In this document: one piece after another, positions 1 to 6,145 of the stretch
How the letters are laid out: each line of letters starts with the position of its first letter
Numbering within the stretch: position 1 is the stretch's first letter
Virus record (IMG/VR): IMGVR_UViG_2695420456_000009
Strand: one strand, 5' to 3'
Origin: a virus
Lineage: Duplodnaviria; Heunggongvirae; Uroviricota; Caudoviricetes
DNA length: 14,939 nucleotides
The notes under the pieces: model-generated
Database searches by the model: none
Seen by the model: only the letters and a program-made list of their open reading frames with translations
Told to the model about the DNA's origin: nothing
Program-made: the position numbers and the translations under genes

Positions 1-110
1 CAGCTTCGGCTTTGAACTCTTTAGAGTAACGTTGGGTTTTTCTGCTCATTATTAGCTCCTTCTGATGCCATTCTATTTCAGGAAGGAGTGTCCGTTAAAC
101 TCAGGCTACC
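1..110 (-). mobile_element. IS3-family insertion sequence, left end with start of orfA (truncated by window edge)
   Basis: Reverse complement of 1..48 translates MSRKTQRYSKEFKAEA, the typical start of an IS3-family OrfA; AGGAG RBS (rc of 55-60) sits upstream. Minus strand then reads TGAG... near 103-113, consistent with a TG-initiated terminal inverted repeat. Exact IS boundary not resolved. Confidence 0.6.
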
Positions 111-1361
111 TCAGGCTAGTGCTTTTTCCAGACCAGAAAGTTTGTTTGCGCGACCGTATTTTTCGCCATCCTTGTCGGTGAAGAGGAAGTAGAACGGCCC
201 CTCACGCTCTACAGATGGTTCGACTTCCACTTTGCATTCGGTTTTTTCGTTGCCCGGAATTGCCGTTTCCACTGCATCAGTTTCTGGTACTGGCGACGAG
301 AGAGTATCAGTTGCGCTCTGATTTCTTCCTTCATCTTCAAACACGCCCTTTGTAGTCAGGTATTCAGTAATGTATTTGTTCAGTGCCACAGGGTCTTTGT
401 GAATGTCGATCGGACGTTCACGGACAAGGCCAAAAATAGTCTGGCGGTCGTAGCGAAGGGCATCAGGCTGTTTGCGCATTGATGCCGAGATACGCTTCCA
501 GTCTTCGCGGTCGTTGTCGATAACTTCATTTTTTGCCCAGCGATGGATGCTGCCGTCAATGTTTCCGGCATCCACATCACCAGGCCAGAGAGCGTAGGCC
601 AGTTCTTCATCCAGCGTTTTCCATGTCTGCTTGTATTCGCGACAAATGGCGGCAGTGACTGGGTTGATTTTTCCTGCTGAGTTTTCAGTGTTCTGTTGAT
701 TGACTCTGGCGCTGGCGAGATCAACAACAGACGTGTATTTTCCAGTCTCTTTGCGCTCTGCGTCCTGCCGTTTTTTCCAGTTACGTAATTCAGCCTGAAT
801 TTCGGGCCATTTGGCACCCGGATTACATTTGTGTTTAACCCATCCGATAGCGAACAGTTTGCGTTCCGGATACATAGCGTTAATTTCAGGCGTTTTCATC
901 AGTGCTTCAACGATATGCCCGTCAAAGGTAGCAACGTCTTCCTGCAGTAATTCCTGCGCGTCAATCGCCATATCAACGGTGATGTTTTCACATGTACCGA
1001 ACTTAACCAGGACCGCGTTCTGTACTTCAAGGGACAGCTTGTCAAAATTGACGTTCATCGGATCGGATTCTGGTTCGACCGGAATAAAGGAAGCGGATTC
1101 CTCATCCCAGCGGTTTTCCTGCATATATTCAGCATCCCAGGAATCGAGGGCAGGGCGGGGTATACCGGGTTTATCCTCGCAGACAAGAAATTTATAAGCG
1201 CAGTCCTGAGCAGCCGGATAATGTTCCAGGAATTGCCAGTGAAATTTTGCGCGGGCGCGACGTTCATCACCGGCTTCAATGGCAGTGGCTACAGCGACGG
1301 CACCTTCTTCCTTTATTGCCTGTTCGTCCGGAATGGCGGCGCAAATAAAGACTTTACTCAT
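111..1361 (-). CDS. hypothetical prophage early-left protein, 416 aa, acidic C-terminal half
   Basis: Long uninterrupted minus-strand ORF with ATG start; sits at the distal end of the dicB operon where K-12 Qin carries ydfE. No catalytic motif recognised. Its stop codon lies at or inside the putative IS terminus, so the C-terminus may be IS-derived. Confidence 0.7.
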   Translation of the reverse strand: MSKVFICAAIPDEQAIKEEGAVAVATAIEAGDERRARAKFHWQFLEHYPAAQDCAYKFLVCEDKPGIPRPALDSWDAEYMQENRWDEESASFIPVEPESDPMNVNFDKLSLEVQNAVLVKFGTCENITVDMAIDAQELLQEDVATFDGHIVEALMKTPEINAMYPERKLFAIGWVKHKCNPGAKWPEIQAELRNWKKRQDAERKETGKYTSVVDLASARVNQQNTENSAGKINPVTAAICREYKQTWKTLDEELAYALWPGDVDAGNIDGSIHRWAKNEVIDNDREDWKRISASMRKQPDALRYDRQTIFGLVRERPIDIHKDPVALNKYITEYLTTKGVFEDEGRNQSATDTLSSPVPETDAVETAIPGNEKTECKVEVEPSVEREGPFYFLFTDKDGEKYGRANKLSGLEKALA

Positions 1362-1456: not shown

Positions 1457-1645
1457 TTATCCAGCCGGTATTTCGTTATTCAGGTTCAGCGATACTTTTT
1501 TTAACGGGAGGCATTCACCGGGGATTTTTTGTTCGTCCCTTACCTGAATGCAGGATGACTTACTGTCATAAATTCCGGTAATCACATTTTGTGGCTCACC
1601 CGTTATAAGAAAAACGGTCATCACCAGTGCAAATGCTGAAGTCAC
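1457..1645 (-). CDS. ydfD: YdfD-like small membrane/lysis protein (62 aa)
   Basis: Protein MTSAFALVMTVFLITGEP...EQKIPGECLP...NNEIPAG matches my recollection of Qin YdfD (hydrophobic N-terminus, EQKIPG and EIPAG motifs). Start overlaps dicB stop in an ATGA arrangement. Confidence 0.75.
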   Translation of the reverse strand: MTSAFALVMTVFLITGEPQNVITGIYDSKSSCIQVRDEQKIPGECLPLKKVSLNLNNEIPAG

Positions 1646-1830
1646 TGCTGTTCTCCGATAATACCAAGTTCAAGAAGGGCAATTCTGGAAAGTATGGAAT
1701 TATCATTGAGAAGATAAGGTTCATATTTTCTCATCTTAATGGCATCTTCCGTAAACTCCCGGTTACTGAGCAGAACACCAATATCAAAACAACCTTCAGA
1801 CGTATTAACGTTTGGTAATAACGTTTCCAT
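1642..1830 (-). CDS. dicB: DicB cell-division inhibitor (62 aa)
   Basis: N-terminal sequence METLLPNVNTSEGCFDIGV...FTEDAI is near-identical to remembered K-12 DicB (MKTLLPNVNTSEGCFEIGV...FTEDAI); C-terminal third diverged. Lies immediately downstream of DicF, as in Qin. Confidence 0.85.
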   Translation of the reverse strand: METLLPNVNTSEGCFDIGVLLSNREFTEDAIKMRKYEPYLLNDNSILSRIALLELGIIGEQQ

Positions 1831-2004: not shown

Positions 2005-2057
2005 GGGCGGCAGAGCAGTCACGGAGTAAAACTGATACCGCCAAACGTCACCAGAAA
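2005..2057 (-). ncRNA. dicF: DicF small RNA (53 nt, antisense regulator of ftsZ and other mRNAs)
   Basis: Minus strand reads TTTCTGGTGACGTTTGGCGGTATCAGTTTTACTCCGTGACTGCTCTGCCGCCC followed by TTTT, matching my recollection of DicF. A 9-bp inverted repeat GGGTTGTCA/TGACAACCC at 2083-2118 could be the RNase III processing stem. Confidence 0.85.
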
Positions 2058-2624: not shown

Positions 2625-3009
2625 TATCCACAGAGCCTAAAGTATGTGCATATGGATGTGCTATTATGCGCCCTCGCAGATTTGCATCATTTTCTAAATT
2701 CACTGAACGAAACAGGGCATCAACAAGGCTCTGTACAATGCAAAGGCAATCGAAGACTGTCGCCGTTTCTGTTTTGATTGATGAAAGAACATGGCCATTC
2801 ACGCAAACAGAAATTACCCGTTTATTAACATCGCTTTCCTGCTTTTGATTATCAGAACCATATAGCCCAGAAAAAGCATTGCGCACATTACGAACCATAT
2901 TATCGATGGTTTCTTTTTCTGCGGTACTAAGGTCAAGAGTAGCCAGTTGTGAACGAACTATATTCGATGCCATTTCCTGTAATGGCGTTGGTAAATCTTT
3001 AAATTCCAT
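2602..3009 (-). CDS. hypothetical protein, 135 aa, extra gene between ydfC-like and dicF
   Basis: ATG start with GAGG RBS 24 nt downstream of the YdfC-like stop; lower-GC sequence than neighbours; no motif recognised. Confidence 0.65.
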   Translation of the reverse strand: MEFKDLPTPLQEMASNIVRSQLATLDLSTAEKETIDNMVRNVRNAFSGLYGSDNQKQESDVNKRVISVCVNGHVLSSIKTETATVFDCLCIVQSLVDALFRSVNLENDANLRGRIIAHPYAHTLGSVDIKDPTNL

Positions 3010-3031
3010 TATTAGCCTCGTTGGTTAGCTA

Positions 3032-3250
3032 TTAACGTGGGTATGTAATCATTCTGGCAATGCTTAATGCCGCTGCTTTTTCCAGATTGGTGATATCCTG
3101 CTCCAGAGCGGACAGATTTTCAGCCTGCTTAGCCCTGGCTTCATTGGCCCATTTCAGGTCCTGCACCGCCTTAATTTTCTGGTGCATCCACTCATAAAGT
3201 TCATCATCGGTATAGTCTGGCGCGATGATGACGGGGTCTCGTTTCTGCAT
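3032..3250 (-). CDS. ydfC: YdfC-like protein (72 aa)
   Basis: 72-aa ORF, same length as Qin YdfC, ATG with AGGAG RBS; position in the dicA-proximal part of the operon. Assignment by position and length only. Confidence 0.6.
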   Translation of the reverse strand: MQKRDPVIIAPDYTDDELYEWMHQKIKAVQDLKWANEARAKQAENLSALEQDITNLEKAAALSIARMITYPR

Positions 3251-3322
3251 GTCGGCTCCTTGTGGTTAGCGTTGCCTGCTTTTTAACCACGTCAGGCGAG
3301 GTGGTATCCTCTGAGGGGTCTG

Positions 3323-3679
3323 TTACTCGAGAGGAAATTGGTTATGAATACAATCAAGTTTTCTTGCCCAGAATGTGGTGGCTAAGTCTTTGACACATCC
3401 TTTAAGCCGCAGGGCTCTGACAGTTTCGCGGGAGCCATCTGCAAAAATTGTGGTCACCTTGTAACTGAAGATGAGTCCTCGCAGTTCGATGACGAAATCG
3501 TTGACAATATCTTCGGTGCACTCACCAGAGACTTTCTGAAGTAAAGGCGCATACCGCTTAGTTACCGCTCTGATAACTCTTACCTGTCCGGCAATGGCGC
3601 TGATATCAATATAAAGCGCCATCGCTGTTTCTTTGCTGATCCCTGGACGCCTTCCATTCTGATGTTTGACTTCGCCCAC
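3323..3679 (-). CDS. hypothetical protein, 118 aa, first gene of the leftward operon (ydfA/ydfB position)
   Basis: GTG start with AGAGGA RBS; first ORF downstream of a TTGACC promoter-like element in 3680-3886. May be the intact form of the short K-12 ydfA/ydfB ORFs (inference). Confidence 0.55.
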   Translation of the reverse strand: MGEVKHQNGRRPGISKETAMALYIDISAIAGQVRVIRAVTKRYAPLLQKVSGECTEDIVNDFVIELRGLIFSYKVTTIFADGSRETVRALRLKGCVKDLATTFWARKLDCIHNQFPLE

Positions 3680-3886
3680 TGAGAAATCCTCTGCTTCCCC
3701 TTAACGCCGGGTAGCGGAACTGTTTGCTGAGAACACCGTGCGGTGTCTTGATGAGTAGAATTTAGAATAGCCTAAGAGTTATGGTCAAGCTTTTTGTGTA
3801 GAAAAACCTAAGCTTCTTGATGTAAAAAACACAAGTATTTGAAAGTTTGTGCTTTTTATTACAGAGAGTTGCGAAAAAAAGGGGGG
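3680..3886 (-). promoter_or_regulatory. early-leftward promoter/operator region between dicA-like stop and the 118-aa ORF
   Basis: Minus strand contains TTGACC followed about 18 nt later by TAAATT; CCTAAG motifs at 3771-3776 and 3808-3813 resemble the repeats in the dicA-dicC intergenic region. Confidence 0.3.
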
Positions 3887-4294
3887 TTATTTATTTGCGC
3901 TTCTTTTGCGAGCTTTGAGTAGTTCTTCAAAAAGTTTGTTGAAATTCTCAACTCGAGCACGCATCTCTGACAACAGAGCCTTTTGCTCTGACTCAGGCAG
4001 TGCGTCGAACAGTTGAAGCAACTCTTTTTGATCTTCTGTCAGATTGACTGGCTGATTATCTGGGATCGGTTCGCCTGGTTGCTTATCTTCATCTCCAAAA
4101 AGAAGCCAAGTCGGCGAGCACTGAAGCGCCTGGCTCAGTGCGAATAATCTCTTCCCCGCTGGCTGTGTTTCATCTCTTTCCCATTGAGAAATTGTTACGT
4201 GAGCCACTTTGACCAGCTTACCTAATGCGGCCTGAGACAGTTTTAATTTTTTTCGCCTGTATAAGAGGCGAGCACCGAAGGTTTCGTTTTTCAT
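3887..4294 (-). CDS. dicA: DicA-like prophage repressor (HTH XRE family, 135 aa)
   Basis: Protein ...LYRRKKLKLSQAALGKLVKVAHVTISQWERDETQPAGKRLFALSQALQCSPTWLLFGDEDKQP...NFNKLFEELLKARKR matches remembered DicA in length and sequence; divergent from a Cro-like gene. Confidence 0.85.
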   Translation of the reverse strand: MKNETFGARLLYRRKKLKLSQAALGKLVKVAHVTISQWERDETQPAGKRLFALSQALQCSPTWLLFGDEDKQPGEPIPDNQPVNLTEDQKELLQLFDALPESEQKALLSEMRARVENFNKLFEELLKARKRSANK

Positions 4295-4370
4295 ATTAGG
4301 TAATTCTAATTTTTCTTGGCTTAGGTTTCTCTACGACCTAGTTTCCTTAGGAAAATCTAAGGGGTTCGAT
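4295..4370. promoter_or_regulatory. divergent promoter/operator region of the immunity switch
   Basis: 76-bp intergenic region carries CTTAGG (4320-4325), CCTAG (4336-4340), CCTTAGG (4345-4351) and CTAAGG (4357-4362), mutually inverted half-sites plausibly bound by the DicA-like repressor. Confidence 0.5.
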
Positions 4371-4598
4371 ATGTTGAAAATTGATGCTATAGCGTTTTTT
4401 GGCAGCAAAACAAAGCTTGCCAATGTCGCAGGAGTTAGGCTGGCAAGCGTTGCTGCATGGGGGGAACTGGTTCCTGAAGGTCGCGCGATGCGCCTGCAAG
4501 AGGCATCCGGCGGGGAACTTCAGTACGACCCCAAAGTTTATGACGAATATCGTAAGGCAAAGCGGGCGGGGCGGTTGAACAATGAAAATCACCACTGA
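4371..4598 (+). CDS. dicC: DicC-like Cro-type regulator (75 aa)
   Basis: Protein MLKIDAIAFFGSKTKLANVAGVRLASVAAWGELVPEGRAMRLQEASGGELQYDPKVYDEYRK resembles remembered DicC; RBS AAGGGG; divergent from dicA-like. Confidence 0.8.
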   Translation: MLKIDAIAFFGSKTKLANVAGVRLASVAAWGELVPEGRAMRLQEASGGELQYDPKVYDEYRKAKRAGRLNNENHH

Positions 4599-5133
4599 AC
4601 AGGTTTGTGAGGCTCTGGATACCTGGGTATGCCGACCAGGAATGACACAGGAGCAGGCGACGATATTAATCACGGAAGCATTCTGGGCTCTGAAAGAACG
4701 CCCGAACATCGATGTTCAACGCGTCACGTTTAATGATGGCGAGGTTGATCAACGGGCGCTGGGCGTTAACCGGGTGAAGATATTCGAACGCTGGAAAGCT
4801 ATCGACACCAGAGATAAGCGTGACAAATTCACGGCGCTGATTCCGGCAATTATGGAGGCTATCCGGATCAGCGATTTCAGATTGTATTGTGAAATTACTG
4901 ACGGAAAAAGCATTACGTACATGATCGCCGGGTTAAACAAAGAATATGGCGATGTGGTGGAGTCCGGGCTGCTTTTTGCGGATCCAGTTGTTGTGGAACG
5001 TGAGACTGACGAGCTTATAGAAAAAGCTATTGCTTTCAAGCACGCGTATCGTCAGCAATACCAATATTACTTTGCAGATAAACAAATGTCTGCCAGGGGT
5101 TCGTATGAGTATCGATGCACTACGATGGGCTAA
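4582..5133 (+). CDS. hypothetical early protein, 183 aa (cII/YdaT position)
   Basis: ORF directly after the Cro-like gene with 17-nt overlap and preceding the replication initiator. Function not recognisable from sequence. Confidence 0.6.
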   Translation: MKITTEQVCEALDTWVCRPGMTQEQATILITEAFWALKERPNIDVQRVTFNDGEVDQRALGVNRVKIFERWKAIDTRDKRDKFTALIPAIMEAIRISDFRLYCEITDGKSITYMIAGLNKEYGDVVESGLLFADPVVVERETDELIEKAIAFKHAYRQQYQYYFADKQMSARGSYEYRCTTMG

Positions 5134-6145
5134 AAAGGTGAAAACCGGCAGTTCATCCAGTAAGTCAGTATTGACCTGGCTTGCTGATATGTGCGGTGCC
5201 GATTTGTGTGCATACCCGTCTGTATCTGCACTGGCAGAAGTAACGGAACTGAACAAAAAGACTGTGCAGGACAGCTTACGACACCTGATGGAGATTGGGT
5301 TAATTGTTGATACCGGTGAGAGAAAAGGCAGAACAAAGCAAATTGTGGTGTACCGACTTATCGGTGTAGAAGAAAGTGTTGCCGAGCCTGAATACACCCA
5401 AAAACGGGAGTCTTTAAAGGTGGGTAAAATTGGTGCTGTTAATAAAAACAGTACCGAAAATGGTTATGTTTCAGCACAAAACAGACCCAAAAACAGAACT
5501 CTTAGCTGCATGGAAAATAACCAAAGACACCCAAATTTTCCATCAAAGACACCCAAAAACGGATCACGGAACCCAAAGGAACCCAAAGATCTAAACCCCA
5601 CACATAACGCACGCGAGAGTGCTCCGACCAGTGAGCAGGAAGTTTTGTCGTTACAGGCAGCCCCCCCTGTATTCCTGTATGGCCTGAGCGAACCCATCGG
5701 AAAATTCCCGATGAGCGATAGCTGGTATCCGTCACGGGATTTTCGACGACGGGCTGCGTTGTGGGGGATGGCTTTGCCGGAGACAGAATTTACACCTGCT
5801 GAACTTGCCGCCTTCCGGGACTACTGGGCAGCGGAGGGGAAAGTGTTTACGCAGATTCAGTGGGAGCAGAAATTCGCCCGTCACGTAAATCACGTCAGGG
5901 CGCAGGTTAAACCAGTCAGCAAAGGGGTAAACCATGCAGCAGCACCAGGTGGCACCGCATCACGGGCAGTTCAGGAAATTCGGGCAGCACGTGAGCAGTG
6001 GGAACGTGAAAACGGATTTATCAGCGACGGAAACGGCCTGGAAGCTGTGGGAACTCATGGGGGTGGTTTATTCGAACCGCTGGATCCAGAAGAACGGGGC
6101 CGCACCTTCGAAGCTCTGGATTGCACAGATTGGCGCGATGACTGA
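5105..6145 (+). CDS. phage replication initiation protein (lambda O-like, N-terminal HTH)
   Basis: Preferred start ATG 5105 with RBS AGGGG 6 nt upstream (track ORF opens at 5030). N-terminus MSIDALRWAKKV...SVLTWLADMC...PSVSALAEVTELNKKTVQDSLRHLMEIGLI is a typical replication-protein HTH; iteron cluster lies inside the gene as in lambda O. Confidence 0.8.
   Translation: MSIDALRWAKKVKTGSSSSKSVLTWLADMCGADLCAYPSVSALAEVTELNKKTVQDSLRHLMEIGLIVDTGERKGRTKQIVVYRLIGVEESVAEPEYTQKRESLKVGKIGAVNKNSTENGYVSAQNRPKNRTLSCMENNQRHPNFPSKTPKNGSRNPKEPKDLNPTHNARESAPTSEQEVLSLQAAPPVFLYGLSEPIGKFPMSDSWYPSRDFRRRAALWGMALPETEFTPAELAAFRDYWAAEGKVFTQIQWEQKFARHVNHVRAQVKPVSKGVNHAAAPGGTASRAVQEIRAAREQWERENGFISDGNGLEAVGTHGGGLFEPLDPEERGRTFEALDCTDWRDD
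5481..5590. repeat. iteron array, candidate phage origin of replication inside the O-like gene
   Basis: Direct repeats of an ACCCAAA core: CAAAGACACCCAAA at 5521-5534 and 5546-5559, GGAACCCAAAG at 5569-5579 and 5578-5588, and a degenerate copy at 5481-5496. Confidence 0.7.

Follow-up and report, generated by a model that had tools for sequence, protein, structure and literature searches.

An insertion of IS600 has very probably truncated an exonuclease gene in a lambdoid E. coli prophage of the PPompW type, integrated at ompW, keeping the conserved N-terminal module of the gene and removing its catalytic domain. We examined the whole of draft contig CYDC01000074.1 (14,939 nt, assembly GCA_001285425.1; hereafter the window), which starts inside IS600 because the assembly broke there. 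The prophage is the PPompW element of phage records LC5678xx, and the rest of the window is 99.8–99.9% identical to PPompW copies in O26, O103, O111 and O145 strains. A minus-strand open reading frame of 416 codons that abuts the element is the front half of a known prophage exonuclease gene, with its stop codon supplied by the IS600 end. The gene, the IS and the habitually defective prophage are all known.

Junction between IS600 and the exonuclease gene

The element at the window's edge is the left end of IS600. Positions 1–113 are 100% identical to thousands of IS600 copies in E. coli genomes, annotated there as 'IS3-like element IS600 family transposase', and carry a terminal inverted repeat (TGAGGTAGCC...) with the same TGAGGT terminus as other copies; the repeat and the identity to reference copies place the segment in IS600 and bear out a preliminary description of this DNA, which had proposed an IS3-family element. 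Aligning three independent IS600 copies together with their flanks fixed the terminus at window base 113, since the copies are shared up to this base and diverge directly beyond it; their other ends start TGAGGTGTAC. From base 113 the minus strand reads TGAGGTAGCCTGAG..., and at greater length TGAGGTAGCCTGAGTTTAACGG..., followed by the start of orfA, whose ATG lies at 49–47 and whose first 16 codons are in the window (MSRKTQRYSKEFKAEA). A complete IS600 measures 1264 bp (in L002), as do the reference copies, in which the transposase is frameshifted; the window shares the orfA start with these copies but holds only the left 113 of the 1264 bp and reaches only orfA codon 16. We count the identity of the element and the exact junction as demonstrated.

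The stop codon of the reading frame belongs to the element. The frame (111–1361, minus strand) starts with ATG and ends with a TGA, which the preliminary description had noticed to coincide with the start of the IS; because the IS600 terminus is at base 113, this TGA (113 to 111) is formed by IS600 bases 1–3. The intact gene has TTG (Leu) there as codon 417, and since this codon also begins with T, the first base of the stop is of ambiguous origin, IS or gene, by one base. IS600 is oriented like the interrupted gene and its TGA is in frame directly after Ala416; the predicted product would consist of the N-terminal 416 residues with no IS-encoded residues added.

The intact gene is about twice as long as the frame in the window. 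From base 113 on, 1,249 nt are 100% identical to DNA in many E. coli chromosomes, annotated as 'exonuclease' or '3'-5' exoribonuclease domain-containing protein'. In O26:H11 strain 11368 the intact gene has 2,472 nt and 823 codons (WP_000048478.1, ECO26_1771) and is followed by xis and int on the same strand, beside ompW. Residues 1–416 of its product are exactly those encoded in the window, and the protein continues as ...LEKALA-LGATEITKEEYF..., with 407 more codons in frame in IS-free genomes and the natural stop 1,221 nt further on. Because the intact gene runs on past codon 416, the frame in the window is its 5' half and the stop is IS-supplied. Of the two readings offered in the preliminary description, that the IS truncated a longer gene and provides the stop agrees with this result; the check it proposed, alignment with intact homologs, finds the C-terminus incomplete at 416 of 823 codons.

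Domain matches identify both the retained and the lost part of the protein. PHROG 2082 ('exonuclease') covers the window frame at profile positions 1–416 of 823, and precomputed Pfam annotation of the exact 416-aa product gives YdfE_N (PF27430) and YdfE_C (PF27432); both models, together with similarity to K-12 YdfE, assign the product to the YdfE family. Residues 241–360 match the non-catalytic central part of RecE/ExoVIII. In the intact protein, residues 642–813 form a Rv2179c-like DEDDh 3'-5' exonuclease domain (Pfam, E=2e-67), and a PDB sequence search returned a single solved-structure match, the 227-aa exodeoxyribonuclease 8KEL. We regard the length and domains of the intact gene as settled. 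The full-length PPompW-type architecture, by which we mean a YdfE-like N-terminus, a RecE-like center and a C-terminal DEDDh exonuclease domain, is absent from the window copy, which is a truncated allele; its retained part has the identity and the neighbors (DUF1482, dicB, DicF, ydfC) of the PPompW-type exonuclease gene. The earlier statement that the protein has no recognizable motif holds for our local Pfam copy, which predates the YdfE models and gave no match for the 416-aa fragment or its distant homologs, and fails for YdfE_N/YdfE_C, PHROG 2082 and the RecE-center match. Assignment to the RecE equivalog (NF007259) was rejected: the cutoff is 1269 bits, whereas the fragment scores 50 and the intact protein 280, with matches confined to central positions of the model, and neither sequence has an Exonuc_VIII or PDDEXK Pfam match.

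Table 1. Positions of the features discussed, in window coordinates
Feature	Position	Strand	Evidence
Left end of IS600 (IS3 family): inverted repeat, promoter-like site, orfA codons 1–16	1–113	-	Identity, flank divergence
9-bp direct repeat CTCAGGCTA (copies at 100–108 and 110–118)	100–118	.	Motif counts
Stop TGA of the truncated frame, IS600 bases 1–3	111–113	-	Alignment with intact gene, fixed IS terminus
GCC on the gene strand, predicted copy of a 3-bp target-site duplication	114–116	-	Predicted
Codons 1–416 of the 823-codon PPompW exonuclease gene (ydfE ortholog)	114–1361	-	Nucleotide identity, PHROG 2082, Pfam
ydfD-like gene (DUF1482)	1457–1645	-	Synteny with K-12 Qin, same leftward operon
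dicB	1642–1830	-	Synteny with K-12 Qin, same leftward operon
DicF sRNA	2005–2056	-	Rfam match above gathering score; synteny with K-12 Qin
DUF1627 gene, intact, 244 aa	6633–7367	+	
252-aa frame, SBP_bac_11; paa (AcfC-family adhesin Paa) in matching loci	8227–8985	+	Pfam
sok antitoxin RNA	9174–9323	+	Rfam above gathering score
51-aa Hok frame adjoining sok	~9321–9476		
tRNA cluster after the Q gene: two tRNAs, CAT (annotated Ile) and Arg-TCT	12607–12847		Rfam, RefSeq
tRNA-Lys(ttt), third tRNA, between those two	12684–12759		ARAGORN
STnc100 sRNA	13626–13798	+	Rfam above gathering score

The junction carries a short direct repeat. The preliminary description reported TCAGGCTA twice, at 101–108 and 111–118, which is correct; the repeat is in fact 9 bp long (CTCAGGCTA), and the window contains it just twice, where chance would give 0.07 occurrences. 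The first copy lies wholly inside the IS and the second combines five target bases (TAGCC) with the terminal TGAG of the element, so that the junction reads TAGCCTGAG-G-TAGCCTGAG. The IS600 end itself has TGAG twice, 10 bp apart, and the target TAGCC(T) happens to match IS600 bases 6–11, from which the 9-bp repeat results. Counting both strands of this prophage segment, a repeat of at least 9 bp would result from only 20 of 29,628 insertion points (0.07%). Some IS3-family members have been described as targeting sequences that resemble their own ends. IS600 shows no sign of a general preference of this kind: at twelve other ends of the element the junction repeats are only 3–6 bp long. The 9-bp repeat, recognized in retrospect, stands alone as an unusual case and cannot carry a targeting claim.

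The far side of the element and competing accounts

Draft assemblies show the two sides of the insertion point separately. The far side of IS600 is not visible in the window because the contig breaks within the element. The 416-aa product is in NCBI under three accessions as 'exonuclease [Escherichia coli]', and the identical product is encoded on three draft contigs, each ending in or at IS600; one of them, from another independent assembly (L006), ends at the same nucleotide (...GCACTAGCCT, that is ...CTAGCCT). Neither the 5,426 complete E. coli genomes nor the GTDB representative genomes contain the exact IS–gene junction, so the two sides are seen together in no finished assembly. For a modeled simple insertion with duplication of GCC we proposed ten candidate products of the 3' remnant; exact-sequence look-up found three of them in the collection. 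In three further draft assemblies (L011–L013) a contig opens at codon 416/417, with C, CC or GCC ahead of TTGGGAGCTACGG..., and runs on across the gene's 3' half into an intact xis, then int and ompW; the contig of L012 begins exactly GCCTTGGGAGC. GCC accordingly stands both at the end of left-hand contigs (the window and L006) and at the start of a right-hand one (L012) in different assemblies, and clean 3-bp duplications flank three of six other IS600 copies inspected. One remnant product, P0135, does not prove an IS by its presence, because the IS-free allele L010, with a nonsense codon at position 400, yields it as well; the useful evidence for the right side comes from the contigs that start at the junction.

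A simple insertion is favored by the right-hand contigs, which open at codon 416/417 and still have the gene's 3' half along with xis and int. Under this model IS600 would have entered the exonuclease gene at codon 416/417, and its terminal TGA, in frame after Ala416, would end translation. The far end of the element would be joined to GCCTTGGGAGCTACGG and not to xis or int sequence; with a duplication of GCC, the right end (...GCCAGTACACCTCA) would be followed by GCCTTGGGAGCTACGGAAATC. The assemblies that show the right-hand side differ from those that show the left-hand side, and since L011–L013 are not from the window's own assembly, it is only by inference that we extend simple insertion to this genome, where GCC was probably duplicated and the 3' half, xis and int probably still lie beyond the element.

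A different history could have produced the same left-hand junction. IS600 might already have been in xis, and the 5' part of xis together with the 3' half of the exonuclease gene (~1.4 kb) might have been removed, by recombination with a second IS600 copy or by a deletion mediated by the IS end, bringing the same end against codon 416. Such a deletion is plausible because in the prophage of NZ_OY754853.1 an IS600 copy interrupts xis, oriented as in the window and with its left end facing the exonuclease gene, 1,437 bp from the junction seen in the window; K-12 Qin has an IS-linked loss of this sort beside ydfE and intQ, and the far side of the element lies beyond the window's end. Contigs of three other assemblies that start 0–2 nt from the same point and keep the 3' half, an intact xis and int speak against it, as do the 3-bp duplications at half of the inspected IS600 copies, which mark those as simple insertions. 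We consider a deletion by either route unlikely.

Other accounts fare worse. Being a draft built from short reads and stopping 113 nt inside a multicopy repeat, the contig could be chimeric, with IS600 reads joined to the gene by the assembler. Against this, the contig is on record for two samples; an independent third assembly stops at the identical nucleotide; in three more the break falls on the other side of that point; and assemblers are expected to break contigs at true IS borders. Together these make an artefact highly improbable. We give almost no credence to the other reading of the preliminary description, in which the 416-aa frame would be whole and the IS would sit directly behind the gene's own stop. 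It is refuted because the natural stop lies far beyond: in IS-free genomes identical DNA runs on in frame through the remaining 407 codons, TTG stands where the window has TGA, and PHROG 2082 aligns the frame to the first 416 of its 823 positions, against which the one point in favor is an open frame with a good start codon. Insertion of IS600 into the exonuclease gene is the reading that we retain.

The YdfE-like module and the fragment that keeps it

The cut falls behind a conserved module and in front of the catalytic part. Similarity to Klebsiella homologs of 27–28% identity reaches to about residue 342, and because the cut is at 416 the N-terminal module is left intact; the window frame retains this YdfE-like module (residues ~1–345) and a low-confidence acidic linker. 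Missing are residues 417–823, which comprise the rest of the RecE-like center, a CxxC...CxxC segment and the DEDDh domain, that is, everything with a predicted catalytic role. Replacement of codon 417 by the IS-borne TGA means that the catalytic half is lost, and without the DEDDh domain and the RecE-like central segment the 416-residue product cannot be a nuclease.

The module combines with diverse C-terminal partners. Only 192 representative clusters match it among 1.84 billion proteins. In other temperate phages, residues ~1–345 are joined to differing C-terminal modules (P0166, P0290 and P0293; L014 at 2974–5106, L015 at 2998–5163): the partner is a DEDDh exonuclease in the PPompW protein, a RecE-type PD-(D/E)XK nuclease in P0293 (921 aa), and in most others a module that lacks a Pfam match and carries the PHROGs label 'exonuclease'. 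These others include the 710-aa proteins of Stenotrophomonas phage BUCT708 and Klebsiella prophages and the 721-aa protein of Pectobacterium phage ZF40 (gp07); further full-length representatives span 702–921 aa. Among these distant homologs from Pectobacterium and Stenotrophomonas phages and Klebsiella prophages (702–921 aa), none ends naturally near residue 416, and we found no IS-free homolog of the same length and with the same C-terminus as the window product, full-length relatives being about 700–920 aa. In the phage records examined the gene has the same place in all, late in the early-left operon before int. The distal operon position given in the preliminary description is right for the window as well, where the frame is the last gene of a leftward dicB-type operon before xis/int.

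Structural comparison says little of the N-terminal half. Neither the intact protein nor a family profile of 22 sequences found a solved structure matching this half. An AlphaFold2 model of the 416-aa fragment, built on a shallow alignment of nine sequences, has a mean pLDDT of 49 and a pTM of 0.31 and is of too low quality for fold searching; only residues 250–340, which are helical, reach a pLDDT of 70–85, and residues 344–416 are of low confidence. Its fusion to different DNA-processing domains leads us to guess at a recruiting or scaffolding role for the module. Since it keeps the whole module, together with the native start and the position within the dicB operon, the fragment could still be made and act alone; it may, for instance, bind a partner or substrate normally recruited by the YdfE-like module. 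We see a slim chance that the fragment is not inert, and a smaller one still that the insertion point was chosen for its resemblance to the IS end.

Prophage decay and comparison with known systems

PPompW prophages are reported to be widespread, all apparently defective, and to bear IS insertions (PMC8112680). Against this background the allele is one more ordinary decay event in a family already described as universally defective, and it presumably reflects neutral decay. Elsewhere in the same prophage, IS600 occurs at 300–1564 and 18878–20142 in L008 (NZ_OY754853.1) and at 20359–21623 in L009; among these sites in other strains, one is inside xis and the others are in the late/lysis region. 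The DUF1627 gene, intact in the window (Table 1), is annotated as frameshifted in O26:H11 11368, L008 and L009. The prophage's early-right region carries paa, a virulence-associated cargo gene. For annotation, the allele is a caution that a gene fragment can pass for a complete 'unknown protein' when an IS end provides a stop in frame; the caution is useful because the fragment sits in NCBI as plain 'exonuclease'.

Compared with the intact PPompW exonuclease, the window copy has the same residues 1–416, the same upstream operon and a prophage backbone that is 99.8–99.9% identical, but lacks residues 417–823 with the CxxC...CxxC segment and the Rv2179c-like DEDDh domain. The intact protein in turn resembles RecE/ExoVIII of the Rac prophage (NF007259, PF06630) in its center, where residues 242–625 align with positions 267–602 of the RecE model (E=5e-83), and both genes are the last early-left gene before xis/int. 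Unlike RecE, it has a DEDDh 3'-5' exonuclease domain and no PD-(D/E)XK domain, and no recT-like gene adjoins it.

The closest counterpart is ydfE of the K-12 Qin prophage. The gene order there is dicA-ydfA-ydfB-ydfC-dicF-dicB-ydfD-ydfE, and ydfE (b1577) is a pseudogene cut by IS2E, beside the intQ pseudogene. Over residues 1–257, K-12 YdfE and the window protein share 87% identity; the K-12 protein then passes into an IS2-derived tail. This identity and the shared neighbors (ydfD-like gene, dicB, DicF and ydfC) turn the parallel with ydfE drawn in the preliminary description into orthology, a closer relation than it had claimed and one that we count as secured: by position and by sequence the window gene is the ortholog of Qin ydfE. 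The two share their family, their place after dicF-dicB-ydfD and before the integrase gene, and truncation by an IS3-family element. They differ in that IS2 struck at codon 257, inside the conserved module, whereas IS600 struck at 416, after it; in that the K-12 product has an IS-derived tail and the window product none; and in that the int side is also degraded in K-12. A further allele (L010, GCA_050028875.1, 4753–7224) has the exonuclease gene split into 399 and 407 aa by a GAA-to-TAA change at codon 400, with no IS. This nonsense codon is a third independent inactivation, beside those by the two IS3-family elements, IS2 in K-12 Qin and IS600 here, which struck one gene independently at two codons.
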